DNA of 64,000 bases. Source: Nitrospirota bacterium (lineage in GTDB: Bacteria > Nitrospirota > Nitrospiria > 2-01-FULL-66-17). Positions within the stretch are counted from its first letter, which is position 1; each line of letters begins with the position of its first letter. The stretch spans positions 80,656 through 144,655 of the forward strand of contig JBMOMD010000036.1 of assembly GCA_049325295.1 (NCBI GenBank), written 5' to 3'. The notes under the pieces were generated by a model. It was not told the origin of the DNA. It did not search any database and was given only the letters and a program-made list of their open reading frames with translations. Positions 30,830 through 46,007 of this stretch are shown here, in pieces. Position numbers and translations under genes: made by a program.

Positions 30830-30917
30830 CTCAACGGCCGTGATCGTAGCACAACCAGCTCACCGAATGATAGATATGAAATGTTCCACGTGGAACATTT
30901 GCCGATAAGGGGGCTGG

Positions 30918-31559
30918 TTAGGTGGGCACGCGCCAGATCAACAATGCGTGGGTGAGGTCGGTCTCAGGAATCCGGTACGTGTGCACTAAAAACCCTGTGT
31001 CCGCATGTCCGGCCTGCTGCGTTGAGACCCAAATCACGACCATTCCACCCGGCTTAACTAAAGGAAGGGCTAAGTCTTTCGCTGATCGTGGTTCAGCAAC
31101 CGCACGCATCAGAACGGCGTCAAACCGACCAACCAGATCAGGCACCTGGCGCCTGAGATCCATCGTTTCCTCTACGATGGCGATGTCTTGGAGCTTGAGC
31201 AAGGCACAAACCGTGGTTAAGAACGCCGCGCGCTTTTGTCGCGGCTCAATCAGCGTCATGTGTAGATCGGGCCTGGCGATTTTAATGGGCAGCCCTGGAA
31301 ATCCGGCGCCGGACCCCAAGTCCGCAATCTGAGCCCCAGCCGGTAATTCATTCAACACCAGCATGCCCGCCAAGGAATCCAACACATGGCGCGTGACGAG
31401 GTCATTTATTGTTTCAGCGGCCGTGAGATTGATCCGTTGGTTCCATTTCCGAAGCTCGGCAAGGAAGCGGTCGATCTGCGCCAATTGGTCGCGGGAGATA
31501 GCCACGCCTAACGCAGCAGCCCCGCGCTCAAGGATTCGAAGCGGGGAGGAGTCCGACAC
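30918..31559 (-). CDS. rsmG: 16S rRNA (guanine527-N7)-methyltransferase RsmG (GidB)
   Basis: SAM motif DLGSGAGFPGLP, and the conserved RsmG N-terminal region. Confidence 0.9.
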   Translation of the reverse strand: MSDSSPLRILERGAAALGVAISRDQLAQIDRFLAELRKWNQRINLTAAETINDLVTRHVLDSLAGMLVLNELPAGAQIADLGSGAGFPGLPIKIARPDLHMTLIEPRQKRAAFLTTVCALLKLQDIAIVEETMDLRRQVPDLVGRFDAVLMRAVAEPRSAKDLALPLVKPGGMVVIWVSTQQAGHADTGFLVHTYRIPETDLTHALLIWRVPT

Positions 31560-31568
31560 GTGCTGGAT

Positions 31569-33449
31569 TTAGACGCCGGCGAGCGCCGACGCTGATCCGC
31601 CGCGCCGGTCGCGCTCGAGCGCGACCAGCAACAAGGACACAGCCGCCGGCGTGACGCCGGAAATGCGGGAGGCCTGGCCTAGTGACCGCGGGGACACGGC
31701 CGAGAGCTTTTCCACCACTTCGCGCGACAGGCCGTTGACGCGATCAAAAGCAAAGCCGATGGGAATTTTTCGGTCTTCGAGCTGTTTGAACCGCTCGACC
31801 TGTTGCTCCTGGCGTTTCAGATACCCCTCGTACTTGATCTCCAGTTCCACCTGCTCGGTCAATTCGGGGTCAACCGTTTTCAGCTCAGGCCATATCGCGG
31901 CCAAGTCCATGAACGCGACGTCCGGACGCCTGATCAACTGCGCGGCCGATGTTTCAGACGTGAGCCACGACCAAGCCTCAGGGAGCGGCGTGCTACGAAC
32001 TCGCAATCGCGACAGTCGTTCGATCTGTTCTTGAATCGCGTCACGCCGTGCACGGAATCGTTGATGCGTTTGGCCGTCGACCAAGCTGATCCGTGCGCCC
32101 AGATCCATCAACCGCACGTCCGCGTTGTCGTGTCGCAGCAGCAGCCGATACTCGGCACGCGACGTAAACATGCGATAGGGCTCGTTCGTGCCCTTGGTAA
32201 CCAGATCATCGATCAGCACCCCGATATAGGCCTGTGACCGCTCCAGGACCATGGGTTCTCGCTGTTGGATGGCCAACGCGGCGTTGATTCCGGCCATAAT
32301 GCCCTGTGCCGCGGCCTCTTCATATCCAGAGGTGCCGTTGATCTGACCCGCATGATACAAGCCAGGAACCACCTTGGTTTCCAGGGTGGGCCACAGTTGC
32401 GTGGGCGGGACATAGTCGTATTCGATCGCGTACCCAGGCTTGATGAACTCCACGCGCTCCAGCCCCGGAATCGTCCTTACAAACCGGTGCTGGACGTCAA
32501 CCGGCAAGCTGGTGGAGATGCCGTTGGGATAATAAATCGGCGTGTCCAAACCGTCAGGTTCCAGAAAGACCTGGTGACGCTCTTTATCGCTGAACCGGTG
32601 GATCTTGTCCTCGATTGACGGGCAATAGCGCGGGCCAGTGCCTTGGATCACGCCGGTAAACAAGGGCGAGCGGTCCAAATTGTCCGCGATGACCGCGTGC
32701 GTCTCCGCGCTGGTGTACGTCAAAAAGCACGGAACCTGTGACTGAGCAATCCGCTCAGTCCGATACGAAAACGGCCGAGGCGGATTGTCGCCATGTTGCG
32801 GCGTGGTGGCGGAGAAGTCGATCGTGCGACCATCCAACCGCGGCGGGGTCCCGGTCTTGAGACGTCCCAAGGTGAATCCCAACGCTTCCAGACTGGCGGA
32901 CAGGCCTTCAGCCGCTGGTTCGCCAGCACGGCCCGCTGAAAAGTTTGTCAAACCGACGTGAATCAGTCCGCGCAAGAACGTGCCCGTGGTCACGATCACG
33001 GCCTTGGCGCGATACAGGGTCCCGTCAGCGGTCACAACCCCTTCAACACCCGCGTCACCTGTTGCAAGCCGCACCACTTGCTCAGGCACAATGTTGAGGT
33101 TTGGTTGAGCCTCGAGCGTGGCCTGCATGGACAACCGATACCGCACCCGGTCCGCTTGAGCCCGCAACGCCCGCACCGCCGGGCCCTTGGACGTGTTGAG
33201 CATGCGGAACTGAATACCGGTCTCATCAATGGTGCGCGCCATCTGCCCACCCAGGGCATCGATCTCCCGCACCAAATGCCCCTTCGCAATCCCACCAATG
33301 GCCGGATTGCACGACATCTGGGCAATGTTCTCATAATTCATGGAAAACAAGAGCGTGCGGCATCCCATCCGAGCCGTCGCCAACGCCGCCTCACAGCCCG
33401 CGTGGCCAGCCCCGATGACGATGATATCTGGGAAACCGGTGGTTTTCAT
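31569..33449 (-). CDS. mnmG: tRNA uridine 5-carboxymethylaminomethyl modification enzyme MnmG (GidA)
   Basis: FAD motif [17 protein letters not shown], and a full-length GidA architecture of about 626 aa. Confidence 0.95.
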
Positions 33450-33573
33450 CGTGTCTTGTCTGTTAAAACTTTACCCGATGTTCCACGTGGAACATGGTGA
33501 TTGAATCCTAATTAACATTAGAATCGCTCCGGCCTAGCAGTGCTGGCCTTGACGTGATGTCCAGTTTTTAGCG

Positions 33574-34968
33574 TCACTTTCCGATGCAAAACTTCGAAAA
33601 GATCTCGTTCAGGACATCGTCCGTTGTCACGGTCCCCAAAATTTCGCCCAACGCCTCCACCGCGCCGCGCAGGTCCATGGCGATGCACTCGTGCGGACCG
33701 CGCTCAGCCACTGTTGCGTGGAGGTGAGCGAGCGCGGACTCGGCTCGGTTCAGCGCCTCAACGTGGCGAAGTTTGGTGACGAACGCACCTTCTGTGGTCG
33801 CGACGCCTCCGTTGAGACGAGTCGCGATCTCCTTGGTCAACGTCTCGATGCCTTGGTGCGTATGGGTTGAAAGGGCATGAACCGGCTGCCCACCGAGCGC
33901 TTGGCTGATTGCACTGATATCCGCGCGTTGCGCAAGATCCGCCTTGTTTGCCACCGCGATGACCGAGCGGTCCTTTAATTGGGCCAGCACCGCGTGATCG
34001 TCATCCGCCAGCGGCTCCGAGCCGTCAAACATCGCGAGAATCAGGTCCGCGCCCGCGACCGCGTCGTTGGTACGGCGGATGCCTTCGACCTCCACGGGGT
34101 CTGCCGTGCGTCTCACGCCAGCCGTATCCGAGAGCCGAACAGTAATCCCGCCAAGGTCTGCCGCTTCCTCGATCGTATCGCGCGTGGTCCCCGGAATCGG
34201 CGTGACGATCGCGCGGTTCTCGCGCAGCAACACGTTGAGCAAGCTGGACTTGCCCACATTGGGCCGGCCCGCGATCACCACCGACGCGCCTTCGCGCGCG
34301 ATGCGGCCGCGATCCGCGGTGGCGAGCAAGCGCCGAATCTCGCGTCGGGCTTCGTCCACCGACACGGTCAGCGCTTCGCGCGGCAAGAACTCCAGGCCTT
34401 CCTCGGAAAAGTCGATACTCGCCTCGATCTCCACCAGCAGCCCCACGAGGCGCTCTTGGAGAGGGCGGATCGCGGCGGATAATCCGCCCCGCAGTTGCGC
34501 CACGGCCGCGCGCGCGCCCGCGTCGCTCTGCGCGCGGATCAGATCCATCACGGCTTCGGCTTGCGCGAGGTCGATCCGGCCGTTCATGAACGCGCGTCGC
34601 GTAAACTCCCCGGGCTGGGCGAGCCGAACGCCGGGCGCGAGCAACAGGCTCATGATCCGCTTTAACACGTGGGGGCCGCCGTGGCACGAAATCTCCACCA
34701 CGTCTTCGCGCGTGTAACTCTTGGGCGCGCGCATGAGCGTCACCAGCACTTCGTCGACGATCCCATTATGGGATTCATCGATCGCGTGACCGAACGCCAC
34801 GTAGCGGTCTTCGAGCGATTTGAGCGATTGGTTCGATTGCAACCGCAGCACGCGATCCGCGGCGGCGACGGCGCCCGGGCCCGAGAGGCGGATCACGCCG
34901 ATCGCGGCTTCGCCCGGCGCGGTCGCGATCGCGCAGATGGTGTCAGACGGGAGTGTGCGCTCCGGCAT
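33574..34968 (-). CDS. mnmE: tRNA modification GTPase MnmE (TrmE)
   Basis: G-domain GRPNVGKSSLLN, DTAG, NKAD, and the C-terminal CIGK motif. Confidence 0.95.
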   Translation of the reverse strand: MPERTLPSDTICAIATAPGEAAIGVIRLSGPGAVAAADRVLRLQSNQSLKSLEDRYVAFGHAIDESHNGIVDEVLVTLMRAPKSYTREDVVEISCHGGPHVLKRIMSLLLAPGVRLAQPGEFTRRAFMNGRIDLAQAEAVMDLIRAQSDAGARAAVAQLRGGLSAAIRPLQERLVGLLVEIEASIDFSEEGLEFLPREALTVSVDEARREIRRLLATADRGRIAREGASVVIAGRPNVGKSSLLNVLLRENRAIVTPIPGTTRDTIEEAADLGGITVRLSDTAGVRRTADPVEVEGIRRTNDAVAGADLILAMFDGSEPLADDDHAVLAQLKDRSVIAVANKADLAQRADISAISQALGGQPVHALSTHTHQGIETLTKEIATRLNGGVATTEGAFVTKLRHVEALNRAESALAHLHATVAERGPHECIAMDLRGAVEALGEILGTVTTDDVLNEIFSKFCIGK

Positions 34969-34980
34969 CGGAACCCTCGG

Positions 34981-36627
34981 TCACGCGGACAGGCCTTTCG
35001 GAATCACGAGGGGCTGCGGCTTATAGTACTTCAACGTCACGTACTGCTGCACGATGGTCAAGGTGTTGTTGGCGATCCAGTACAGCACCAGTCCGGCCGG
35101 AAACGCGAGGAAGAAAAACGTGAAAATGACCGGCAAGAACAACATGATCTTGGCTTGGGTCGGATCCATGGTGGTGGGCTGGATCTTCTGTTGAATGAAC
35201 ATCGTGATGCCCATCACGATCGGCAACACGTAGTACGGGTCCTTGTCCGACAGGTCGGTGATCCACCCGAAAAAGGGCGCCTGCCGCAACTCGATCGTGG
35301 TGTATAAGATGTTGAACAACGCGATGAAAAACGGAATCTGCACCAGCATGGGCAGGCACCCGCCGAGCGGATTGACCTTGTTGCCTTTGTAGAGCGCCAT
35401 CAACTCCTGGTTGAGTCGCATCTTGTCGTGTTTATATTTTTTCTGAAGCGCCTGGGTCTGCGGGTGCAGCGCGGCCATGGCTTTCATCGATACGAAACTC
35501 TTGTGCGAGAGCGGCGCGAACACCAGTTTGATCAACGCGGTCAACAAGAGGATCGCGATCCCGAAGTTTCCGGTGAACCCGTGCAGAAATTGGAGCAACA
35601 AGAACAAGGGTTCCGCGATCAATCGCACCAGCGCCCAACTGCCATAGATAAACCAGCCAAAGTCGATCGTTTCTTGCAGCCCGATCTGCAGGGCGGCCAA
35701 ACGGTCGTACTCTTTGGGCCCGGCGTACAGGCGAGCGGTGACCACTTTACCGTCGGACGGCTCGGGCTCTCGTAACCCGATGGTCACGCGGTTCTCGCCC
35801 AAGCGCTCCGCCACCACCGTGCTGTTCGGCGCGCTCGGGATCAACGTGGTCACGAAGTACTTGTCCTGGAGGGCGGTCCAGGTCACGCGCCCGGCGTGCA
35901 CCGCCGGCTGATCGAGGTTGGAGGGTTTGTCTTGCACCACTTTCCCGTCGATCAAGCTGGTGGGGCCGATGTAGCCGACAAACGACACGTCGCCCCAGTG
36001 CCGAATCCCAAAGTTTTCTCCCAACACCACGCGATAGGAGCCGGACATCCCCCAGGTGGTGACTTCGACGTCCACTAGGTAGTTATCGTGGTGAAACGTT
36101 AGGCGCTTGACGAGCATTTCGCCGCTCGGCCCCCGCGTTTGAAATCTCAGCGTGCCGCTCGGCCGGTCCGGACCGAGACGCAGGTCGCCTCCGTCCACGG
36201 CGTACAATCCGCTTTGGATCGCGGCGCGCGAGGCCTCGTCTCCGGCTTCCAGCACGACGGCCAACGGAGACGCGCCGCCCGCGGCCGGAGGCGTGTAGAG
36301 GTCGATCGGCGTGTCTTTGGTCGGCCCGTCTTTGTACCGCGATAATCGCCACGAGGTGATCACCGCCCCCCGCGTGGACAACGTGGCGCGATACAGGTCC
36401 GTCTCGACCACGACGGTCCGCTCGTCCGCAGACGGCGCGACCGAAGCAGCGCCAGGCGCCGTTTCAGGAACGCCCGAAGGCGACGCGGCCGTGCCGGTCG
36501 TCTCGGTCGGGGACGTTGCCGGAGCTTGAAGGTCGGACTTCGGTGGCGGCGCGGGCGGAAACAGCACCGAGTACCCGATGATGATCGAAATGGAAAGAAC
36601 TAAAAATAAGATCGCGTTACGTTCCAT
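34981..36627 (-). CDS. yidC: Membrane protein insertase YidC
   Basis: N-terminal TM, large periplasmic domain, and the conserved C-terminal 5-TM core (PLGGCLPMLVQIPFFIALF...). Confidence 0.9.
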   Translation of the reverse strand: MERNAILFLVLSISIIIGYSVLFPPAPPPKSDLQAPATSPTETTGTAASPSGVPETAPGAASVAPSADERTVVVETDLYRATLSTRGAVITSWRLSRYKDGPTKDTPIDLYTPPAAGGASPLAVVLEAGDEASRAAIQSGLYAVDGGDLRLGPDRPSGTLRFQTRGPSGEMLVKRLTFHHDNYLVDVEVTTWGMSGSYRVVLGENFGIRHWGDVSFVGYIGPTSLIDGKVVQDKPSNLDQPAVHAGRVTWTALQDKYFVTTLIPSAPNSTVVAERLGENRVTIGLREPEPSDGKVVTARLYAGPKEYDRLAALQIGLQETIDFGWFIYGSWALVRLIAEPLFLLLQFLHGFTGNFGIAILLLTALIKLVFAPLSHKSFVSMKAMAALHPQTQALQKKYKHDKMRLNQELMALYKGNKVNPLGGCLPMLVQIPFFIALFNILYTTIELRQAPFFGWITDLSDKDPYYVLPIVMGITMFIQQKIQPTTMDPTQAKIMLFLPVIFTFFFLAFPAGLVLYWIANNTLTIVQQYVTLKYYKPQPLVIPKGLSA

Positions 36628-36683
36628 CGCGTAGGCACACGTCTCGTGTTAGAGGGATTGGGACACCGCGCGTTTCGGGGCGG

Positions 36684-36956
36684 TCACGGAACGGGGTCGT
36701 ATCCGCCGGCGCACAGCGGGTGACATCGCAGCAGACGCCGAATCGTCAGCCATGCGCCCTTGGCCGCGCCATATCGCTCCAGCGCGTCCACCGCGTAGGC
36801 CGAACACGTCGGAAGAAACCGGCACCGGGGCGCCAACCACGGGGAAATCAAGCGGCGGTACCCGTGCACGAGCCCCACGCACGCCCGGCACAGGAACCCG
36901 CGACCGTGCGCGGCGCTGGGTGCCGGCGAGGCGGTTACGAACACGTCTTGATCCAT
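36684..36956 (-). CDS. yidD: Membrane protein insertion efficiency factor YidD
   Basis: [58 protein letters not shown]. The ATG at 36956 overlaps the rnpA 3' end by about 22 nt. The longer track ORF is trimmed. Confidence 0.7.
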
Positions 36957-37270
36957 TCCACAAACAGCGCGGCGATCCGTTCGTTTAACGTGGCGAACGA
37001 CCATGACTGAACGGGAGAACGGGGCAGCACCAACCAATCCCATCCGGCCGGAACAACGTCGGGATGAGTCCGCAGAACCTCGCGCAACCGGCGTTTGACC
37101 CGGTTTCGCTCCACCGCGCCGCCGAACTTACGCCCGACAATGACGCCCGCGCGGCGACTCTCCGGGGCATCCGCCCGGCGCAGACCCACCACCGTCAGCG
37201 GGCCGCGTGATAACCGTTTCCCGCGCTCGAAGATCCTTCGGATCTCCGGCGAGCGGGAAATTCGAGCCAC
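36935..37270 (-). CDS. rnpA: Ribonuclease P protein component
   Basis: Basic N-terminus and the RNR motif ([10 protein letters not shown]). Positioned between rpmH and yidD. Confidence 0.85.
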
Positions 37271-37284
37271 CCTGACGTCGCCGG

Positions 37285-37425
37285 TCAGACCGTGGTCAGG
37301 CGTTTTCTCCCCTTGGCGCGACGGCGTTTCAGCACACGACGGCCGTCGGTGGTGGACATCCGCTTGCGGAATCCATGCGTGCGTTTGCGACGCAAATTAC
37401 TCGGTTGCCGGGTTGTAACGGACAT
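37285..37425 (-). CDS. rpmH: 50S ribosomal protein L34 (46 aa; absent from the ORF track because it is shorter than 60 aa)
   Basis: Manual translation of the minus strand gives [55 protein letters not shown] lies 7 nt upstream of the ATG at 37425. Confidence 0.9.
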
Positions 37426-37467
37426 GAGACGACACTCCTTCGCTTGTTATTTCCGAAAAAACGCCCT

Positions 37468-37496
37468 ATTATAGGGAACCCCTCACGGGGTGTCAA
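37468..37496 (-). promoter_or_regulatory. Consensus sigma70 promoter for rpmH-rnpA (TTGACA-17 nt-TATAAT)
   Basis: On the minus strand: TTGACA (37496-37491), the 17-nt spacer ccccgtgaggggttccc (itself a cccc-N4-gggg hairpin), TATAAT (37473-37468), about 45 nt upstream of the rpmH ATG. Confidence 0.7.
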
Positions 37497-37587
37497 ACCT
37501 GACGCCTCGGGAATTCCGGGATCACTCCGTCAGGGGAGACTATCGGCGCCACGGCCGGCCGCCGGTTGAAGGCGCAAGGATTCGCGC

Positions 37588-38193
37588 ATGACCACCGTGA
37601 CTTTGGCGACACAGAGCGATCGCGACACTCTCCAACGCCTGCTGTTCGAGCGGGCGTTTCGATACAGCGAGGAACCCGCTTTCCGTTTGGCCTCGGGCGC
37701 TCTCAGCCGATATTACCTGAACAGCAAACTCGTCACCCTCGATCCCAAGGGCGCCACCTTGATCGGCCGTCTCGTGTTTGAACGTCTCCGCGGGCTGGGG
37801 GTGCAGGCGGTGGGGGGGCTCACGTTGGGCGCCGATCCCATCGCGCTGGCCACCGCGATCGCCAGCGAGGCCGCCGGAGAGCCGATCGCCGCGTTCGTGG
37901 TCCGCAAAGAACCCAAAGGCCACGGCACGGCGCAGTGGATTGAGGGGCCTCTTCCGCCTCAAGCACCGGTGGCCGTGGTCGATGACGTGGTCACGACCGG
38001 GGGTTCCACGGAAAAGGCGCTCAATGTGCTGAAGCAGCTTGGACACCCCGTGGTCAAAGTGGTTGCCTTGGTGGACCGCGACGAAGGCGGCCGCGAGGCC
38101 ATTACGCGTCGGGGCGTGTCCTTTGAAAGCCTTTTTCACATCAACGATTTTTTGACCTTGTGGAATGCCGACCCGTCACGAGCCGTCTTATAA
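37588..38193 (+). CDS. pyrE: Orotate phosphoribosyltransferase
   Basis: PRPP-binding motif VAVVDDVVTTGGST and the type-I PRTase fold. It is divergent from rpmH. Confidence 0.85.
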   Translation: MTTVTLATQSDRDTLQRLLFERAFRYSEEPAFRLASGALSRYYLNSKLVTLDPKGATLIGRLVFERLRGLGVQAVGGLTLGADPIALATAIASEAAGEPIAAFVVRKEPKGHGTAQWIEGPLPPQAPVAVVDDVVTTGGSTEKALNVLKQLGHPVVKVVALVDRDEGGREAITRRGVSFESLFHINDFLTLWNADPSRAVL

Positions 38194-38244
38194 GGGGTTG
38201 GGGCCTTCAGCAGGCCCACAGGACGGCTTGGGGCGGGCACACCG

Positions 38245-39132
38245 GTGTACCGACGTGACGCCACTCCCAAGCCTTTACCGAACAGCACCGACGGATGGGA
38301 AAGGGAGGGTGGCGTGAGGCATCGTGGGTTGGGTCTGGTAATCGGATTACTGGTGGTCTGGGGCATCACGGCGTCGGGGCCGGCGCACGCGGGGGTCTTG
38401 GCGACGGAAATCGCGCAAAAATCCGAAGACGTGTACCCGGGGCAGGATCAGACCGCCAAATTGACGTTCACGATCAAAGACTCCAGTGGCGGAGAGCGCA
38501 AGTCCGTGCTGCGGCGGTACTGGAAGAACTATCGCGGCAAGAACGGATTGGACTTCAAAGTCCTTGTGTTCAACGAGTACCCTCCGGACGCCAAGGGCAG
38601 TTCCTTCATGCTCTGGGCCTATGACCCGAAAAGCGGGAAACCGGCTGATCGCTGGTTGTATATCCCGATTCTGAGCAAGGTGAACAAGCTGGCGAACAAC
38701 GCCGAAACCGGAGGCATCGCCAGTTCCGATTTGAACCCGAACGACATGGTTTCTCGTCCCGTGGACCGCGACACCCACAAGCTGCTCGGAGAGGAAACCG
38801 TCGGGAACCGGTCGTATTACATGATTGAAAGCACGCCGATCAAACCCGATCCGGCCTATAACTACGGCAAGGTGGTGAAGTGGATTACCAAGGACACCTC
38901 GCTGAAAGAGCGCGTGGATTACTACGATCTCGAGGGCAAGTTGCTCAAAACCCAATACATTACCTGGAAACCGGTCAAAGACGCCTGGGTATGGGAGAAG
39001 GTGGTCATCAACAATGCGCAGACCGGCTCGGAAACCTACCTGAGCATCAATGACATCAAAACCGACACCGGCATTCAAGACTCGTTCTTCAGTGACCGCA
39101 CGATGAAGAAAGGGATCGACAGCCTCCCATGA
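38245..39132 (+). CDS. LolA-like outer-membrane-lipoprotein-sorting-type periplasmic protein (LolA_like/DUF1329 fold)
   Basis: Signal peptide RGLGLVIGLLVVWGITASGPAHA followed by an all-beta domain of about 250 aa with a conserved ...RWLYIP... segment. Its stop overlaps the ATG of the downstream sensor (ATGA). Confidence 0.55.
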   Translation: MYRRDATPKPLPNSTDGWEREGGVRHRGLGLVIGLLVVWGITASGPAHAGVLATEIAQKSEDVYPGQDQTAKLTFTIKDSSGGERKSVLRRYWKNYRGKNGLDFKVLVFNEYPPDAKGSSFMLWAYDPKSGKPADRWLYIPILSKVNKLANNAETGGIASSDLNPNDMVSRPVDRDTHKLLGEETVGNRSYYMIESTPIKPDPAYNYGKVVKWITKDTSLKERVDYYDLEGKLLKTQYITWKPVKDAWVWEKVVINNAQTGSETYLSINDIKTDTGIQDSFFSDRTMKKGIDSLP

Positions 39133-40955
39133 CCGCATCGGGCCCCCAGCGGTCTGCTCGCCTCGGGCTGTTTCGGTGGCGACCGCGTCTCAAGGCCCGA
39201 CTCGGCCTCTTTATTCTCACCGCCGGCGTGCTGTCCGGCGTGGTGACGCTGGGCGTCATCTATTTTCTCGGCACCGCGACACTGAAAGCCACGATCGGGC
39301 GCAGCTTCGAAGAGTTGGCGTCGTCGACCGCCTCGAACATCGACACGTTGTTCACTCATCATATTGAGGAGGCCCGTCTCCTGGCGTCGGTCCAATCGGT
39401 GTTGACCGTGGTGGAGGAGTCCAACGCGTTTTTCAGCAGCGACCCGATCGAAGACGTCAGGTCGCGAATTCGTGAAATCGACGAGCGATGGCGGACCGCC
39501 CAAGGCGTTGATGCCTTCTTGCTCGAAATTCAGGGGAACCGAGCCACCGCGGCGCTGAAAGAATTTGTCGCACAGACTCCCGATGCAACGCTCTATCAAG
39601 CCGTTGTCGTCACCAATATCCATGGGGCCCTCGTCGCAGCCACCGGACAGCCGGCCCGCTACGATTTTAGCGCGATCCCCTGGTGGATCCATGCGTTCCA
39701 GAACACGGACGGCCGTCCCTTTATCAGCGGCGTGGAGGCGTTGGCCGGCACCGCCGATCCGGTTGTCGTGATCGCCACGCCGATTGTCAAGAATCGACAA
39801 ACCATCGGGGTCTTGGCCTTGGTGGAGCGCGCCGATACCCTGCTGCGGGGAGTGGCGTCCGCCAAGATCGGGAAAACCGATCACACCATGATTCTCACCG
39901 CCGAGGGCGTGGTCGTGTACTGTCCGGTTGCTCCTCTTCAGAGTCATGCTCTCTCGCCGACCTACGTGGCCGCCGTCACCGAGAACCGCAAGGGGTGGAT
40001 GGCGACGCGCGAGGACGTGCACTTTGCGGGGCGTGAGGCCCTCAGCGGGCACGCGCCGGTTGAGCTGACGCAGCGACTCGGCCCCGACAACTTCGGCGGC
40101 CGGCCGTGGTTCGTGGTCACCAGCCAAAATCCCGCGGAAAGTTACGCGCCCATTTATACCCTCTTGCGCTGGATCGGCGTGGCCGGGGTGGCCGGCACGC
40201 TGATCTTCGTGCTGATGGGATCGCTGATCGCCCGTCGCATCGTGCGGCCGATCCAAACCTTACAGGAAGGCGCCGACCTGATCGGGCAAGGGAACCTCAA
40301 CCACCGAATCGAGGTCGCCACAGGTGATGAGATCGAGGATCTGGCGAACCAGTTCAACAAGATGGCTCACAAGCTCAAACTGTTTTACATAGGGTTGGAG
40401 GAAAACGTAAAAGAGAAGACGTGGAAGATCGAACATCAAAATAAGGAGCTCTCGATCTTGTACGCCATCGCCGCCACGTTGAATCAATCGCTCCCCATCC
40501 GAGATCTCCTTGACCAGACGTTGCAGAAAATGCTGGACGTGATGGAGGCCGATGGTGGACTCATTTGGATGGCGCAACCGCCGTCCGGGTCTTCACCGAT
40601 TACCGCCACCAAATTGCCGACCCTGTCGCCCGCGCAAATGAGCAGTTTGATCGAACTGATCCACCACATCAGCCTTCAGATTCGACGGACCGGCGACCTG
40701 TGGGCCACCGAGAACTTGGCCGTGGATGATCGTATCGACTCGGTCCGGTCTGGAGATCCCGGTTTTATCTCCCTGGTCGGTATCCCGTTACGATCCCGCG
40801 ATCACGTGCTCGGAATACTCTTTTTATTGTATCGGGATATCCGGGCGCTCACGTCGCGGGAGGAGAAGCTCCTGGGATCGGTCGGCAGCCAGATCGGCGT
40901 GACCATCGAGCACAGCACCACGGCGCACGGCCTGGGGGCCACCTCCCAGCCCTGA
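39129..40955 (+). CDS. Membrane sensor with periplasmic Cache-like domain, HAMP and C-terminal GAF domain; no recognisable kinase, cyclase or DNA-binding output
   Basis: TM1 LFILTAGVLSGVVTLGVIYFL. A periplasmic region of about 270 aa. TM2 LLRWIGVAGVAGTLIFVLMGSLIA. HAMP (IVRPIQTLQEGADLIGQGNLNHRIEVATGDEIEDLANQFNKMAHKL). GAF (LDVMEADGGLIWMA...LVGIPLRSRDHVLGILFLLYRD...LGSVGSQIGVTIEH). Confidence 0.7.
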   Translation: MTASGPQRSARLGLFRWRPRLKARLGLFILTAGVLSGVVTLGVIYFLGTATLKATIGRSFEELASSTASNIDTLFTHHIEEARLLASVQSVLTVVEESNAFFSSDPIEDVRSRIREIDERWRTAQGVDAFLLEIQGNRATAALKEFVAQTPDATLYQAVVVTNIHGALVAATGQPARYDFSAIPWWIHAFQNTDGRPFISGVEALAGTADPVVVIATPIVKNRQTIGVLALVERADTLLRGVASAKIGKTDHTMILTAEGVVVYCPVAPLQSHALSPTYVAAVTENRKGWMATREDVHFAGREALSGHAPVELTQRLGPDNFGGRPWFVVTSQNPAESYAPIYTLLRWIGVAGVAGTLIFVLMGSLIARRIVRPIQTLQEGADLIGQGNLNHRIEVATGDEIEDLANQFNKMAHKLKLFYIGLEENVKEKTWKIEHQNKELSILYAIAATLNQSLPIRDLLDQTLQKMLDVMEADGGLIWMAQPPSGSSPITATKLPTLSPAQMSSLIELIHHISLQIRRTGDLWATENLAVDDRIDSVRSGDPGFISLVGIPLRSRDHVLGILFLLYRDIRALTSREEKLLGSVGSQIGVTIEHSTTAHGLGATSQP

Positions 40956-41020
40956 CCGGCACTTGATTTACAAGTAATTTCACGGAACATTTTGGCGGTT
41001 TGAGAGGTCATTTCTGTACA

Positions 41021-41623
41021 ATGGCGCTCTTTCGATTCGGCGGGCACGATCGATCGCGACAGGCGGAGTTCGAGGAACACACGCTCCCGTATCTGCCGTC
41101 ATTATACGGGTTTGCGGTGGTTCTGACCGGCAACCGTGACGACGCGAATGACCTGGTGCAGGACGCCTACATCCGGGCGTTTCGCTTCTATCCCCGGTAT
41201 GAACACATCGCCAACTATAAAGCGTGGCTCTTTACATTGACCAAAAATCTCTTTATTAATCGCTACCATCAACGGGCGCGGGAGATTTCGCTGGATGATC
41301 TCGACATTGTTGATGATGAACCTCACCAATCATCGGCCGCGCTGCTGCTTTGCGCGCACGACCGCCATGCGCGGGGCATCTTCCGCCGCGATTTCGAAGC
41401 CGCGCTGGCGGCCATGCCGGACAAACTGAGGTTGGCGGTGCTCCTTCGTGATGTCGAAGGCTTTGATTATAAAGAAATGTCTGAAATTATGGGGTGTCCG
41501 TTGGGAACCGTGATGTCACGCTTGTCGCGCGGACGGAACCTACTCAAGAAGTCGTTGGGCGACTATTGGACGTCGTTGAAGGAGGGACCCGAGTCACGAT
41601 TGTCCCTTCGGGACGCGAACTGA
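41021..41623 (+). CDS. ECF (group IV) RNA polymerase sigma factor
   Basis: Region 2 (LVQDAYIRAFRFYPRY...YKAWLFTLTKNLFINRY) and region 4 (YKEMSEIMGCPLGTVMSRLSRGRNLLKK). Confidence 0.8.
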   Translation: MALFRFGGHDRSRQAEFEEHTLPYLPSLYGFAVVLTGNRDDANDLVQDAYIRAFRFYPRYEHIANYKAWLFTLTKNLFINRYHQRAREISLDDLDIVDDEPHQSSAALLLCAHDRHARGIFRRDFEAALAAMPDKLRLAVLLRDVEGFDYKEMSEIMGCPLGTVMSRLSRGRNLLKKSLGDYWTSLKEGPESRLSLRDAN

Positions 41624-41625
41624 CG

Positions 41626-42447
41626 ATGTACGACTGTTCGACGATCATGAAACTGATGCATCCGTACCTTGACGGTGCTTTGGACGTCAAGGAATCGGTG
41701 CTGGTCGACGAGCACCTCAAGGATTGCGAAAGGTGCCGAGAGGACTATTTGGCGGAAAAGGCATTCCTCTCGCTCCTCCATGAAGCCGCCGCCGTGCCGC
41801 AGACCCCTGCATACACGGCTGCTTGTTTACGCGCAGCACTGGACCGAGAAATCCGGCAGAACGTTCACCAACGCGGCAGATCACGCCTTCCGTGGATTGC
41901 GGCGGCCGCAGGACTCGCCATCGCGATCGTCGGATTGATCGTGCTCGGAACCGCGCGGCATCAGACGCCCGATCTGGTTCAACTGGCGGTCCAGCACCAC
42001 AAACTCTCCTTACGACAACCCCACGCCCTTGATGTGATCGACGACGACCCGGCTGTTGTCTCCACCTGGTTGGAACATCGTCTCAATTTTGACGTTGATG
42101 TTCCCCGCATCAGCCCAGAGGAGTTTCGGATGGTGGGAGGGCGCATCGCGCAAACGGCGGACATCAGGGCGGCCTATTTGTCGTACCGGGTCGGCCAGGA
42201 GACGGTCTCGCTGTTGATCACCCCGCCGCAGGAAATCCGTATCGCGGGACGGGACGTGATCAGTTTCCGCAACATCCTCTTTCACCCCGCTGACGTTGAC
42301 GGACACCACACGCTGGAGTGGTCGGACAGCCGCCACACATACGTCCTGGTGGCGTCAAGTCCCCGCCTGGTCTCAGACGCCTGCCTCATCTGCCACGGTT
42401 CGGACCAAGAGCGTCAGTTTATCTCCGGGTTCGCGAACGGCATTTAA
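41626..42447 (+). CDS. Anti-sigma factor with N-terminal zf-HC2 motif, one TM helix and a periplasmic domain
   Basis: The ATG lies 2 nt after the sigma stop. H-x3-C-x2-C motif (HLKDCERC). TM LPWIAAAAGLAIAIVGLIVLG. Confidence 0.65.
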   Translation: MYDCSTIMKLMHPYLDGALDVKESVLVDEHLKDCERCREDYLAEKAFLSLLHEAAAVPQTPAYTAACLRAALDREIRQNVHQRGRSRLPWIAAAAGLAIAIVGLIVLGTARHQTPDLVQLAVQHHKLSLRQPHALDVIDDDPAVVSTWLEHRLNFDVDVPRISPEEFRMVGGRIAQTADIRAAYLSYRVGQETVSLLITPPQEIRIAGRDVISFRNILFHPADVDGHHTLEWSDSRHTYVLVASSPRLVSDACLICHGSDQERQFISGFANGI

Positions 42448-42601
42448 CGGAGCCTCGCCTACGCCACCTGCTGTCCGTGCGGTCGCGCGGGGCAGGAGCG
42501 CACCCGTCTTTTTTCGGCGCTGCCTGGCCGTGGCCGGACAACGCCGTGAAGTGCATCGCGGTAAAAACTACCTCTCCGAGAGTCGCTGCGTGGAGGACGT
42601 G

Positions 42602-43864
42602 TTACGCGGACTTCATACCCATGTCCTGGTCATACACCAGGATGGGTTGGGCGGTGTTCTGAATCGATTCTTCGGTGATGATGCATTCCTTCACGTTCTT
42701 CGCCGAAGGGATCTCGTACATGAGTTCGAGCATGACGCGTTCGAGAATCGCACGCAGACCGCGGGCCCCGGTTCGTTGCCCGTACGCGCGCCGGGCCACC
42801 TCCGCCAGCGCCCCTGCCGTGAACTTCAACCGGACCTTCTCGAACGCGAAGAGGCGTTCGTATTGTTTGACCAACGCGTTCTTGGGCTCGCTCAAGATCT
42901 TGATCAAGGCTTGTTCGTCCAAATCATCCAGCGTCGCGTGCACGGGGAGACGCCCCACGAATTCGGGAATGAGACCGAACTTGAGGAGATCCTCGGGTTC
43001 GACCTGCGACAACAGCTCGCCCAACCGGCGATCCTCACGACTCTTGATATCCGCGCCGAATCCCATCACGCGCGTCTGCAGTCGTTGGCCGATGAGGGAT
43101 TCGATCCCCACGAACGCGCCCCCGCAAATAAAGAGGATCTGGCTCGTGTCGACCTGAATGAACTCTTGATGCGGGTGTTTGCGCCCGCCCTGGGGGGGCA
43201 CGTTCGCCACCGTGCCCTCGATCAACTTGAGCAGCGCCTGCTGAACGCCCTCGCCTGAGACATCCCTGGTGATCGACGGGGAGTCGCTCTTGCGACTGAT
43301 TTTGTCGATTTCGTCGATGTACACGATGCCACGCTCGGCCTTTTCCACGTCGTAGTCCGCGGCCTGAAGCAATTTCAGAATGATGTTCTCCACGTCCTCG
43401 CCCACATAACCGGCCTCCGTCAGCGTGGTGGCGTCGGCGATGGTGAAGGGGACGTCCAGGATGCGGGCCAGGGTCTGGGCCAGCAAGGTCTTTCCGGTGC
43501 CGGTCGGTCCGATCAACAAAATGTTGCCTTTTTGGAGTTCAACGTCGTTGACGTTGGAGCCGGCATTCACCCGCTTGTAGTGGTTGTGGACCGCGACCGC
43601 CAGCACCTTCTTGGCCCGCTCTTGTCCGACCACGTATTGATCGAGGATACGTTTGATTTCAGTCGGTTTGGGAAGTGTCGACGAGGTAACCAGCTGCTTC
43701 TGGTTCTCGGCCTCTTCGGCAATGATGTCGTTGCAGAGCTCGATGCACTCGTCGCAGATGTAGACGGTAGGACCGGCGATGAGCTTGCGGACTTCGTCAC
43801 GATTTTTCCCGCAGAACGAACACCGCAGCGCTTCCATTCGGTCCGATTTACGTTTGTCGTCCAC
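42602..43864 (-). CDS. clpX: ATP-dependent Clp protease ATP-binding subunit ClpX
   Basis: N-terminal zinc finger CSFCGK...CDEC, Walker A GPTGTGKT, and the GYVG pore loop. Confidence 0.95.
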
Positions 43865-43911
43865 CCGTCTCCCCTCTCGTGCGACGCTCGGGGTCTTTCC
43901 GAGTCCGTCGG

Positions 43912-44508
43912 TTACGTTTTCGGTACGCCGGGACCTCGCTCAAGGACGCTGTCGATCAGGCCGTAGTCCTTGGACTCTTCTCCGGAGAGGAAATAGTCCC
44001 GCTCCGTATCCGCCTGAATGCGTTCAAGCGTCTGTCCCGTGTGTTTCGCCAGAATTTGGTTCAAGCGCTCGCGCGTCCGCAGAATCTCCTTGGCGTGAAT
44101 TCCGATGTCGGTCGCCTGGCCTTGGAAACCGCCCAAGGGCTGATGAATCATGATCCTGGCGTTCGGCAACGCGTGCCGCTTGCCGCGCGCGCCCGCCGCC
44201 AACAACACGGCGCCCATGCTGGACGCTTGGCCGATGCAAATCGTCGAGACGTCCGGCTTGATGTATTGCATCGTATCGTAGATCGCGAGCCCGGCGGTGA
44301 CGAGGCCCCCGGGGCTGTTCACGTACATGCTGATGTCCTTCGCCGGATCTTCCGCCTCCAGAAACAATAATTGGGCGATGATCAGGTTCGCAGACGTGTC
44401 CTCGATCGGGGTACCCACCAAAATGATCCGGTCCTTCAGGAGACGCGAATAAATGTCGTACGCTCGCTCCCCGCGATTCGTTTGTTCAATGACCATCGGT
44501 ACCAACAT
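43912..44508 (-). CDS. clpP: ATP-dependent Clp protease proteolytic subunit ClpP
   Basis: Catalytic triad context [14 protein letters not shown]. Confidence 0.95.
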
Positions 44509-44551
44509 GCTCGCTCCTTACGAAAACGAAAGGGGTTCCATCCCCCCGTGT

Positions 44552-45865
44552 TTATCTAGGCTCCTGACCGGTGGTGGAGCCGTCTTCTTCCCTAATGTCC
44601 GCGTGATCGATCAACCAATCCAACGTTTTTTCGCGACGGATCGTGGCCCGCAGTCCGACGAACTCGCCGCTCTCACCCGCCAGGAGCTTGCGGACCTCTC
44701 GGATATCCGATCGGGTTTGCGCGGCGATCCGCTGGACCTCTCGCTCAATTTCGTCCATTCCGACGGTTACTCCTTCGCGGTCCGCGATCGCTTCCAACAG
44801 AAGGTCGCCTTTGACGCGGCCTTCCGCGGCACTCAGGATTTCTTTCTGCACGGCGTCGCCCGGTGCCTCCGTCGCCTCGGGTCCATGCCCGGCATGTCCC
44901 AAGTGGCGCTCCATGCGATCGCGCAGCGCAGCGGTTTCTCGTTGCACGAGGCTGGGCGGCAAGTCGATCTGATGCCGTTCGTTGAGCAATTTCACCATCG
45001 CGCCCCGTTCCTCCGCCCGTTGCTCGGCTTGTTTACGAGCGGTAATTTCCTGCCGCACCCGTTCGCGCAGTTCGTCCAGCGATGCCAAACCCACGTCTTT
45101 GGCCAGTTCGTCGTCCAACGCGGGGAGCACGCGTTGCTTCACGTCGCCCACCGTGACGCGGAACAACACGCGCCGGCCGGCGACCTGCGGGCTCTGGTAC
45201 TCCGCCGGAAACGTCACTTCGGTTTCAACGTGATCGCCCTTGCGATGGCCTCGCAACGCCGCGTCGATCTCCGGGATCACGGATTGCTCCCCGACATGAA
45301 CCAGATATCCGGTGGCGCTGGCACCCGGCAATGGTTGGCCTTCTGACGATCCTTCGAAATCAACCACCGCGAAGTCTCCCTCCGCGATCTGATGCCCGTC
45401 GTCATAACTGACCAACTCAGCCTGGCGCAGTCGAATGTTCTCCAGCGTTTCCGACACATCCGCGTCCGCCACCGACACGCGGCGACGCCTCAGCGGCAAC
45501 GCCGTGTATGGTTGCAGCGCGACCTCGGGTCGAACCTCCACCACCGCGCGAAACGACAACGGCGCGTCCTTCGCGATCGACAACCCTTCGATCGTCGGCA
45601 GTTGGACCGGCACCAACCCCGCGTCCTTCAGCGCCTGTTCGTAGAATCGGGGGACCAATCGCTGCACCACGTCGTCGGTCACTTCGCGCTGGAACCGTTT
45701 TTCCAACACCGGCAGCGGAACCTTCCCGGGGCGAAAACCCGGTATCTTGGCGCGTCGCCCGAGCTCCGAATACGCCACGTCGAATTCCCGACCGACCACG
45801 GACGGTTCCACCTCGATCACCAATGCACGTTTTACCGGCGATAACGTTTCAATGGACAGTTTCAT
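44552..45865 (-). CDS. tig: Trigger factor
   Basis: Ribosome-binding N-domain signature GFRPGKVP, PPIase and C-terminal domains. The ATG at 45865 is used; the upstream extension in the track is rejected. Confidence 0.9.
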   Translation of the reverse strand: MKLSIETLSPVKRALVIEVEPSVVGREFDVAYSELGRRAKIPGFRPGKVPLPVLEKRFQREVTDDVVQRLVPRFYEQALKDAGLVPVQLPTIEGLSIAKDAPLSFRAVVEVRPEVALQPYTALPLRRRRVSVADADVSETLENIRLRQAELVSYDDGHQIAEGDFAVVDFEGSSEGQPLPGASATGYLVHVGEQSVIPEIDAALRGHRKGDHVETEVTFPAEYQSPQVAGRRVLFRVTVGDVKQRVLPALDDELAKDVGLASLDELRERVRQEITARKQAEQRAEERGAMVKLLNERHQIDLPPSLVQRETAALRDRMERHLGHAGHGPEATEAPGDAVQKEILSAAEGRVKGDLLLEAIADREGVTVGMDEIEREVQRIAAQTRSDIREVRKLLAGESGEFVGLRATIRREKTLDWLIDHADIREEDGSTTGQEPR

Positions 45866-45921
45866 ATACGCTCTGGATTGATGGACGATGGTGTGCCCTG
45901 ACCGAACCACGACGGCCGCGT

Positions 45922-46007
45922 TGGTGCGAGAGGGGGGACTTGAACCCCCACGGGGGTGACCCACCAGATCCTAAGTCTGGCGCGTCTGCCAATTCCGCCA
46001 CTCTCGC
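45922..46007 (-). tRNA. tRNA-Leu (anticodon TAG), type II with long variable arm, CCA encoded
   Basis: The reverse complement folds with acceptor GCGAGAG/CTCTCGC, anticodon loop ctTAGga, long variable arm and T-loop TTCAAGT. Confidence 0.75.

Follow-up and report, generated by a model that had tools for sequence, protein, structure and literature searches.

Here we describe a four-gene locus of a Nitrospirota bacterium in which two evolutionarily autonomous modules lie side by side, namely a secreted LolA-like protein paired with a membrane sensor that lacks an output domain, and an extracytoplasmic function (ECF) sigma factor with its anti-sigma factor. The locus occupies positions 38245-42447 of a stretch of 64,000 nucleotides (NCBI GenBank assembly GCA_049325295.1, contig JBMOMD010000036.1, positions 80,656 to 144,655 of the forward strand), which we refer to as the window. 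Judging from conserved motifs in the DNA, we give about an even chance to the explanation that the two modules have been joined by sigma-dependent promoters in one Nitrospirota lineage, where the LolA-like/sensor pair would be a target of the sigma factor.

All four open reading frames (ORFs) are co-directional on the + strand. Gene 1 (38314..39132) encodes a secreted periplasmic protein of 272 amino acids (aa) with similarity to LolA_like/TP_0789-like proteins (PF17131) and without a lipobox cysteine, and gene 2 (39129..40955) encodes the output-less sensor of 608 aa, in which a first transmembrane helix (TM1), a dCache_1 domain, a second transmembrane helix (TM2), a HAMP domain, a signalling helix and a GAF domain follow each other. 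Gene 3 (41021..41623) encodes a SigH/SigR-like ECF sigma factor of 200 aa, counted from the ATG at 41021 in a frame that is open from TTG 41000, and gene 4 (41626..42447) a membrane-anchored zinc-associated anti-sigma (ZAS) factor of 273 aa. This set of genes and domains had been proposed in an earlier note on the same DNA and is borne out by the ORFs and by Pfam and NCBIfam matches. The coordinates likewise confirm the ATGA at 39129-39132, where the LolA-like stop overlaps the sensor start and which had been taken as a sign of translational coupling, as well as the 2-nt gap between the sigma stop (TGA, 41621-41623) and the anti-sigma ATG at 41626. The reading frames given at that time could be retained, but two of the start codons could not. 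For the LolA-like gene, GTG 38314 is the most likely start in place of 38245, as this GTG is preceded by GGGAGGG and conserved in an alignment of 7 related loci; for the sigma gene it is ATG 41021, which is conserved in alignment A2, in place of TTG 41000. The sigma start falls 45-66 nt past the sensor stop, and no convincing terminator was found between the four genes.

The relationship of the two modules was assessed in the neighbourhoods of 80 species-representative genome loci and of loci found by looking up identical proteins. In all 17 loci of the family with available upstream DNA, the gene immediately 5' of the sensor gene is the LolA-like gene, and the suspected association of these two genes is thus strongly conserved. 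It extends over a family of output-less sensors of about 600 aa, which is confined to Nitrospirota and reaches down to 35% identity. The ATGA overlap was seen in 9 of 9 sigma-clade loci, and a gap of 1-41 nt separates the two genes in most other pair loci. No LolA-like neighbour was found in the examined loci of the longer relatives that carry kinase or GGDEF domains. Literature searches for a LolA-like protein with HAMP or GAF, for PF17131 and for TP0789 yielded no description of such a pair. We consider the LolA-like/dCache-HAMP-GAF pair to be an undescribed and phylum-restricted module and a variant of partner-dependent transmembrane receptors.

Sigma and anti-sigma genes are located 3' of the sensor gene only if the encoded sensor shares at least 70% identity with that of the window. 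This sigma clade comprises the window and the loci L001, L005-L009, L085-L087, L093 and L095-L099. The pair occurs without sigma and anti-sigma genes in 10 loci, which represent three contexts. In L010 and L011 it is found at the same chromosomal site as in the window, between rnpA/yidC and clpX, with a glutamine amidotransferase gene in the place of the sigma gene and without pyrE. Context B (L013-L017) consists of resistance-nodulation-division (RND) efflux genes on the opposite strand, followed by a transglycosylase gene, the pair, and genes for a CxxCxxCC protein and an LPG_synthase_C protein; the transglycosylase is monofunctional, and the LPG_synthase_C protein resembles the C-terminal part of MprF. 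Context C (L018-L020) shows the pair followed by FabI. The envelope and lipid genes around the sigma-less pairs are a weak hint towards a lipid or envelope theme.

The second module is also found on its own. By a metagenome scan with the anti-sigma alignment A6, sigma/anti-sigma loci of the same family without the pair were identified, two of them with full upstream flanks (L110, L113) and two on short contigs (L112, L121). L110 and L113, with an anti-sigma identity of 32-33%, have neither a sensor nor a LolA-like gene within 6 kb on their upstream side, and their module sits among unrelated housekeeping genes, rodZ, metK or trpEGD. The adjacency of all four genes in other genomes, to which the earlier note had pointed as a check, consequently holds within the clade of at least 70% sensor identity but not elsewhere, where two separable modules are found. 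Moreover, the adjacency is conserved in the sigma clade no better than that of the flanking genes pyrE and clpX, and since this synteny is equally conserved, adjacency alone carries little weight. The loci L057 and L058 were considered as a second case of a sensor combined with an ECF sigma factor and dismissed as coincidence, because the sensor is a dCache-HAMP-GGDEF protein and the sigma gene lies on the opposite strand behind a methyltransferase gene.

What appears to connect the two modules in the sigma clade is a pair of candidate promoters. The SigH promoter consensus of M. tuberculosis is GGAAYR-N17-18-GTT (PMC4803200), and SigH of C. glutamicum was shown to recognise GGAAT/C...GTT (PMC6338062). 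A candidate autoregulatory ECF promoter, P2 (GGAACA-N17-GTC, 40984..41009, + strand), lies 12 nt 5' of the sigma ATG. Its boxes and their 18-nt spacing are retained in 8 of the 9 sigma-clade loci, with a spacer sequence that diverges freely, and 5' of the sigma gene the same motif recurs in the sensor-less loci L110, L113 and L121 as GGAATATTT-N14-GTT. Conservation with a diverging spacer, together with the presence in sensor-less relatives, makes it very likely that this sigma family is autoregulated from P2. In the window (41010-41023), the sigma ATG lacks a Shine-Dalgarno sequence and follows about 12 nt past the -10 box of P2, which suggests that the sigma mRNA is leaderless or near-leaderless. 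The stretch from the -10 box to the ATG contains TGTACAATG in the window as well as in L005, L001 and L006; the sigma leader is longer in L007-L009, with a clear GGAGG only in L007.

The other candidate, P1 (GGAATG-N17-GTC, 38162..38187, + strand), likewise of the SigH type, matches the M. tuberculosis consensus and lies about 127 nt 5' of the LolA-like start, overlapping the 3' end of pyrE. Written as the pattern GGAATGCC-N13-CCGTC, it matches in 9 of 9 sigma-clade loci and in 0 of 10 sigma-less loci. When the pyrE 3' region was aligned over 584 columns, the longest run without any variation was GGAATGCC with 8 nt, and CCGTCT, with 6 nt, shared second place. The latter is also invariant in L001 and L006, where pyrE stops earlier and the hexamer is non-coding, and in L008, where a hairpin that spans the pyrE stop codon in the window is broken. 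As a sigma-type motif precedes both the LolA-like and the sigma gene, the four genes probably form one sigma-controlled unit in this clade.

The hairpin itself (38180..38229, + strand) is a conserved stem-loop, whose 5' arm GAGCCGTC overlaps the -10 box of P1. RNAalifold predicted 8 pairs from 9 loci, 2 of them with compensatory changes, and the stem is kept in 8 of the 9 loci. The arms GAGCCGTC...GACGGCTT include an inner GGGGCC/GGCCC stem, and there is no U-tract. A known RNA family was ruled out by an Rfam search, which gave no match at E <= 1. The structure may belong to the 3' end of pyrE or act as a terminator; because of the overlap with P1 it could form only in transcripts that read through from pyrE.

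The sensor, which was found to be output-less in agreement with the earlier note, shows matches to dCache_1 (residues 51-330, ~39279-40118), HAMP (residues 366-417, 40224-40379) and GAF (residues 456-594, 40494-40910) in Pfam. No match to HisKA, HATPase, GGDEF, EAL, MCPsignal or a helix-turn-helix domain was obtained in Pfam or NCBIfam, so that the domain searches gave no reason to reclassify the protein, and merely 14 residues follow the GAF domain. We also looked for a hidden output domain, and nothing was found past the GAF domain in Pfam, NCBIfam, a PDB profile search or the AlphaFold2 (AF2) model. The AlphaFold model of the sensor, with a predicted local distance difference test score (pLDDT) of 79, consists of two long membrane-spanning helices around a double-Cache fold, followed by HAMP, a long signalling helix and GAF. 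In Foldseek, the periplasmic part resembles the dCache domains of PctA/B/C (TM-score <=0.73). Among PDB sequences, the GAF domain is most closely related to that of PtsP (EI-Ntr, 3ci6; E 6.5e-12), and NCBIfam also aligns it to the GAF domain of NifA. The GAF domains of PtsP and NifA are small-molecule-binding input domains, and the sensor thus carries an input-type domain on either side of the membrane.

Searching 5.8 billion proteins, we found about 59 full-length homologues of the sensor with 40-93% identity, all of them 595-620 aa long, with the same three domains and ending just past GAF, and every homologue with a named source was labelled Nitrospirota, Nitrospiria or Nitrospirae. Their common length of about 600 aa, together with the short distance between the sensor stop and the sigma start, rules out a truncated or pseudogenised kinase. 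Outputs are borne by relatives at about 30% identity, in the form of HisKA and HATPase or of GGDEF; the kinase-bearing dCache-HAMP-GAF-HisKA-HATPase proteins are 31-36% identical to the sensor. Since the kinase core of its nearest relatives has been lost, we infer that the sensor must act via protein-protein contacts. In NCBIfam, residues 328-470 of the sensor resemble NarQ best, over TM2, HAMP, the S-helix and the start of the GAF-like domain. NarX and NarQ share the HAMP domain, the signalling helix and a GAF-like module (PMC8199190), but they continue into HisKA_3 and HATPase and possess a four-helix periplasmic sensor, whereas the sensor of the window stops after GAF and carries a dCache domain. 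Another output-less dCache-HAMP-GAF paralogue (596 aa, 36% identity) is encoded in L024 (5508-7750), which stems from the same metagenome-assembled genome (MAG) as L020. The start of its gene is overlapped by a gene for a DUF2231 membrane protein and not by a LolA-like gene. It may be a general trait of output-less Cache-HAMP-GAF proteins to have an envelope partner dedicated to them.

The partner of the sensor family studied here matches PF17131 with 143.3 bits (cut-off 30; E 8.6e-42) over profile positions 4-184 of 184, and by this full coverage it is assigned to the LolA_like/TP_0789-like members of the LolA-LolB clan. It possesses a signal peptide (...GPAHA|G) and no cysteine, which argues for a soluble periplasmic protein and not for a lipoprotein. 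Its relatives in the PDB are 9tp6, 4z48, 3bk5 and 3buu (E 5e-34 to 4e-8). No match of the protein to the RseB/MucB models PF03888 and PF17188 was obtained in Pfam at E <= 0.1; PF03888 (MucB_RseB) is matched only by the distant LolA-like homologues P0216 and P0217. Outside the sensor-linked family, the nearest relatives are 36-39% identical, and their genes adjoin those for a DUF1302 protein and an MMPL/RND exporter, or those for an acyl-AMP ligase, an acyl-CoA dehydrogenase and a carrier protein. This neighbourhood of exporters and lipid-synthesis genes indicates that the LolA-like partner probably derives from periplasmic carriers of hydrophobic cargo in MMPL/RND lipid export.

Within the second module, the sigma factor matches only Sigma70_r2 (residues 31-94) and Sigma70_r4_2 (residues 130-180) in Pfam, which is the ECF (group 4) pattern, and regions 1.1 and 3 are absent. 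It exceeds the cut-off of TIGR02937 (sigma70-ECF) with 77.8 bits vs 42.9. TIGR02947 (SigH_actino) is its best NCBIfam match, with 145 bits below the cut-off of 251.55, and SigH of M. tuberculosis its best relative in the PDB (E 1e-31 to 3e-33). By these profile scores, the protein is classified as SigH-like and not as a SigH equivalog.

The anti-sigma factor, for which a Nitrospirota MAG at NCBI encodes a protein of 100% identity (P0078), matches zf-HC2 (E 6.6e-10), and RsiW and RsrA are the nearest PDB sequences. It consists of a cytoplasmic anti-sigma domain, one transmembrane helix (residues ~88-110) and a periplasmic alpha/beta domain (~116-245), over which the AF2 model reaches a pLDDT of ~90. 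The anti-sigma domain contains a complete RsrA-type zinc site, C4-x25-H30-x3-C34-x2-C37 (41635..41736, + strand), in which H30, C34 and C37 show no variation among 27 sequences, at least 90% of which also have C4 (alignment A5). With H-x3-C-x2-C plus an upstream cysteine, its sequence qualifies it as a ZAS protein. We take the spacing of C4/H30/C34/C37 to equal that of C11/H37/C41/C44 in RsrA.

Near the C-terminus of the anti-sigma factor, on the periplasmic side, lies a CxxCH motif (CLICH, residues 253-257; 42382..42396, + strand). C253, C256 and H257 are invariant in 20 of 20 full-length clade members, in which both x positions vary, and the motif is kept at 32-33% identity in the sensor-less loci L110, L112 and L113. 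Periplasmic CxxCH is the signature of covalent haem-c attachment. The motif may therefore be a candidate covalent haem-c site, or else a redox or metal site. No cytochrome domain of Pfam was matched in the protein, and the helix that bears the motif is modelled at low confidence (AF2, pLDDT 58-73). Conserved histidines near CxxCH were noted at H125 and in FHPADV, GYHTLEW and SRHTYVLV. An anti-sigma factor with CXXCH or haem-c was not described in the literature that we searched. The anti-sigma factor thus carries candidate sensing inputs of its own, the cytoplasmic CHCC zinc site and the periplasmic CxxCH. When the periplasmic domain of the anti-sigma model med545d00f002 was compared by Foldseek, RseB/MucB were the best matches (E 8e-3 to 4e-2, none <=1e-3), which hints, below the safe threshold, that the anti-sigma factor itself may carry a half-barrel of the lipid-binding type. 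Weaker Foldseek matches were fatty-acid- and bile-acid-binding beta-barrels (FABP/BABP) and lipocalins. Anti-sigma-like genes with 43-45% identity and a retained CxxCH were also seen on the metagenome contigs L100-L106. Close to them, neither a sigma nor a sensor or LolA-like gene was detected, and some are accompanied by a second short ZAS-like ORF; they may be orphan members of the family.

Taken as a mechanism, the explanation by joined modules would read as follows. The LolA-like protein would dock on the periplasmic dCache domain of the sensor and, given its derivation from MMPL/RND carriers, would probably bind a hydrophobic envelope molecule. Through HAMP, this complex in the periplasm would be linked to GAF on the cytoplasmic side, a domain of the small-molecule-binding type known from NifA and PtsP. 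Since the LolA-like partner and the loss of the kinase core appear together, we lean slightly towards an inside-out logic similar to that of LapD and LapG, by which the ligand state of the cytoplasmic GAF domain would decide between retention and release of the periplasmic partner. The alternative would be partner-assisted sensing from the outside to the inside, as in LuxP-LuxQ and TorT-TorS, which needs a further cytoplasmic partner. The sigma factor would autoregulate from P2, and with P1 ahead of the LolA-like gene, active sigma would induce the pair, sigma and anti-sigma as one unit. The pair would accordingly be a sigma target and possibly a modulator, not an obligatory upstream sensor. 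Going further, one could imagine a transmembrane switch of a new kind, by which a GAF-bound cytoplasmic metabolite controls capture or release of a LolA-fold lipid carrier and which, in this clade, feeds into an ECF sigma factor with an anti-sigma factor that senses via a zinc-thiolate site in the cytoplasm and a covalent haem in the periplasm; such a three-input circuit of envelope and redox stress would have no described precedent, and we think it decidedly unlikely.

Several observations weigh against the explanation by joined modules. The window contains the bare promoter pattern about as often as chance predicts (11 matches vs 10 expected). The -10 box of P1 overlaps the conserved hairpin and its -35 box overlaps pyrE codons, and hence part of the conservation of P1 could have these other causes. 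That sigma-less loci lack P1 is in part a trivial result, since these loci have no adjacent pyrE. The kinase core was lost and the LolA-like partner acquired in what is a single evolutionary event, and this makes for weak evidence on the direction of signalling; the contact of the LolA-like protein with dCache as well as the lipid ligand are suggested by co-occurrence and family context. Moreover, residues that are fixed specifically in the sigma clade are enriched in the GAF domain (11/139 vs 9/455, Fisher p = 0.002), which would fit a new, clade-specific GAF partner and is alone among the observations in pointing that way. The overall conservation of GAF was dropped as a sign of a sigma-specific partner, since its excess over dCache amounts to +0.12 to +0.24 in the sigma clade and to +0.11 to +0.16 in the sigma-less L010/L011 clade. 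The most conserved parts of the sensor are the HAMP domain and the signalling helix.

In a hypothesis of the earlier note, the LolA-like protein presents a lipidic periplasmic ligand to the sensor, whose GAF domain modulates the anti-sigma factor. Spelled out, the signal would pass from dCache via HAMP to GAF, which would bind or remodel the cytoplasmic part of the anti-sigma factor and so control sigma post-translationally. This would agree with the contiguous, co-directional and tight arrangement of the four genes in at least 13 clade contigs, with an anti-sigma identity down to 44-49%, with a sensor that has no other recognisable output, and with the enrichment of clade-specific fixed positions in GAF mentioned above. 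However, modulation of the anti-sigma factor by GAF receives no comparative support, as the modules occur apart both ways, with the pair alone in 10 loci including the same site in L010/L011. The synteny of pyrE and clpX is equally conserved in the clade, and high GAF conservation is common to the sigma-less L010/L011 clade. On the cytoplasmic side, the anti-sigma factor consists of the anti-sigma domain only and offers no additional domain for docking, and with ZAS and CxxCH it possesses features of its own. Hence, we regard this model as unlikely. Separability would also be expected if sigma and anti-sigma genes had been inserted by coincidence beside an unrelated pair in an origin-proximal block, and P1 would then be a mere hairpin or coding element of the pyrE end. 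The generally strong synteny of the clade from gidA to tig points in the same direction, as do the position of the -10 box of P1 within a hairpin that shows compensatory changes and the chance frequency of the bare motif. Coincidence nevertheless seems improbable to us, given that P1 has the same boxes and spacing as P2, which is itself conserved across distant sigma relatives, that CCGTCT is kept where the hairpin is broken (L008) and where the sequence is non-coding (L001, L006), and that no invariant run in the 584 columns is longer than GGAATGCC.

The earlier note had considered the architecture as undescribed and thereby overlooked the LolA-fold proteins RseB and MucB in ECF sigma/anti-sigma systems. 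Both are lipid-A sensors that bind the periplasmic domains of the anti-sigma factors RseA and MucA, respectively (PMC7400510). By analogy, the LolA-fold protein of the window could shield the periplasmic domain of the anti-sigma factor from site-1 proteolysis until it is displaced by a mislocalised lipid, with the dCache sensor as competitor or buffer. The match of P0216 and P0217 to the MucB_RseB Pfam model fits this idea, and if P1 is real, all four genes would be co-expressed. Against it speak the lack of a PF03888 match in the LolA-like protein of the window, the existence of sigma/anti-sigma relatives without a LolA-like neighbour and the fact that the invariant partner across lineages is the sensor and not the anti-sigma factor. 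Furthermore, the periplasmic domain of the anti-sigma factor is a folded alpha/beta domain, in contrast to the short unstructured tail of RseA, and there is in our view little probability in such a mechanism. Still less can be expected of the idea that the sensor is a kinase-less co-receptor, which heterodimerises with paralogous full-length dCache-HAMP-GAF kinases, or titrates them, and is phosphorylated by proxy. Full-length paralogues with HisKA and HATPase do exist in the same phylum, and the strong conservation of HAMP and the signalling helix would be compatible with it, but their identity of 31-36% is low for heterodimerisation, all four contexts of the pair lack a linked kinase of this kind, and the strict LolA-like partnership would be left unexplained; we hold it to be very improbable.

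Periplasmic partners of membrane sensors are known from other systems. In LuxP-LuxQ and TorT-TorS, a periplasmic binding protein encoded adjacent to the sensor docks on a periplasmic domain of the PAS/Cache type and delivers the signal. LuxP and TorT have the periplasmic-binding-protein fold and their sensors a kinase output, whereas the proteins described here combine a LolA fold with an output-less sensor. An ECF sigma factor, a single-pass anti-sigma factor and a secreted LolA-fold protein likewise come together in RpoE-RseA-RseB of E. coli and AlgU-MucA-MucB of P. aeruginosa (PMC7400510). RseB and MucB belong to PF03888, are encoded by the gene after the anti-sigma gene and bind the periplasmic tail of its product; the LolA-like protein of the window lacks PF03888 and, unlike them, is coupled to a dCache-HAMP-GAF protein and persists without sigma and anti-sigma genes.

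With respect to the sensor, logic of the proposed kind has been demonstrated for LapD-LapG of Pseudomonas fluorescens, where an inner-membrane receptor for cyclic di-guanosine monophosphate (c-di-GMP) holds or releases a periplasmic partner (PMC3032553, PMC3032545). LapD resembles the sensor in having a periplasmic domain, HAMP, a cytoplasmic ligand-binding module, no enzymatic or DNA-binding output and a periplasmic partner (PMC3032553, PMC3032545). In LapD, these parts are LapD_MoxY_N, a degenerate, c-di-GMP-binding GGDEF-EAL module and a protease partner, whereas dCache, GAF and a LolA fold are found here; the logic may thus be shared, but no domains are.

For the sigma factor, the closest sequences are those of SigH-RshA (M. 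tuberculosis) and SigR-RsrA (S. coelicolor), the ECF12-type systems of thiol stress, with which the locus also shares the full CHCC ZAS motif and, as predicted from P2, an autoregulatory promoter of the GGAAYR-N17-18-GTT type (PMC4803200). RshA and RsrA are soluble, whereas the anti-sigma factor of the window is membrane-anchored and carries a folded periplasmic domain and CxxCH. In addition, the sigma factor differs from the SigH/SigR subgroup by its score below the TIGR02947 cut-off and by the phylum of its host, Nitrospirota.

The locus is flanked by housekeeping genes, upstream gidA, trmE, yidC, rnpA and pyrE, and downstream, on the other strand, clpX, clpP and tig. The block gidB-gidA-trmE-yidC-yidD-rnpA ... 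clpX-clpP-tig (~30900-46000 of the window) shows synteny throughout the clade and, in part, in Nitrospirota at large. The gene order from gidA to rnpA is the arrangement usual near the chromosomal origin. At 37468-37496 on the - strand, a perfect sigma-70 consensus promoter (TTGACA-17-TATAAT, 12/12) was noticed, which appears to lie upstream of a short minus-strand block rpmH-rnpA-yidD-yidC; rpmH itself is unannotated in the window.

Output-less membrane sensors are common in genome censuses and rarely explained. The family described here always comes with one secreted partner, and since this partner appears where the kinase core has been lost, the family lends itself to the study of signalling via partner binding. 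The probable origin of the partner from a lipid-export carrier points to envelope-lipid surveillance in Nitrospirota. Members of this phylum include key nitrifiers, and to our knowledge almost nothing is known about their envelope stress signalling. With the predicted promoters P1 and P2, a regulon logic that can be tested directly is at hand for an ECF sigma factor of the SigH-like type outside Actinobacteria. If haem were indeed attached to the periplasmic CxxCH, the ZAS protein would be an unusual redox-sensing anti-sigma factor.

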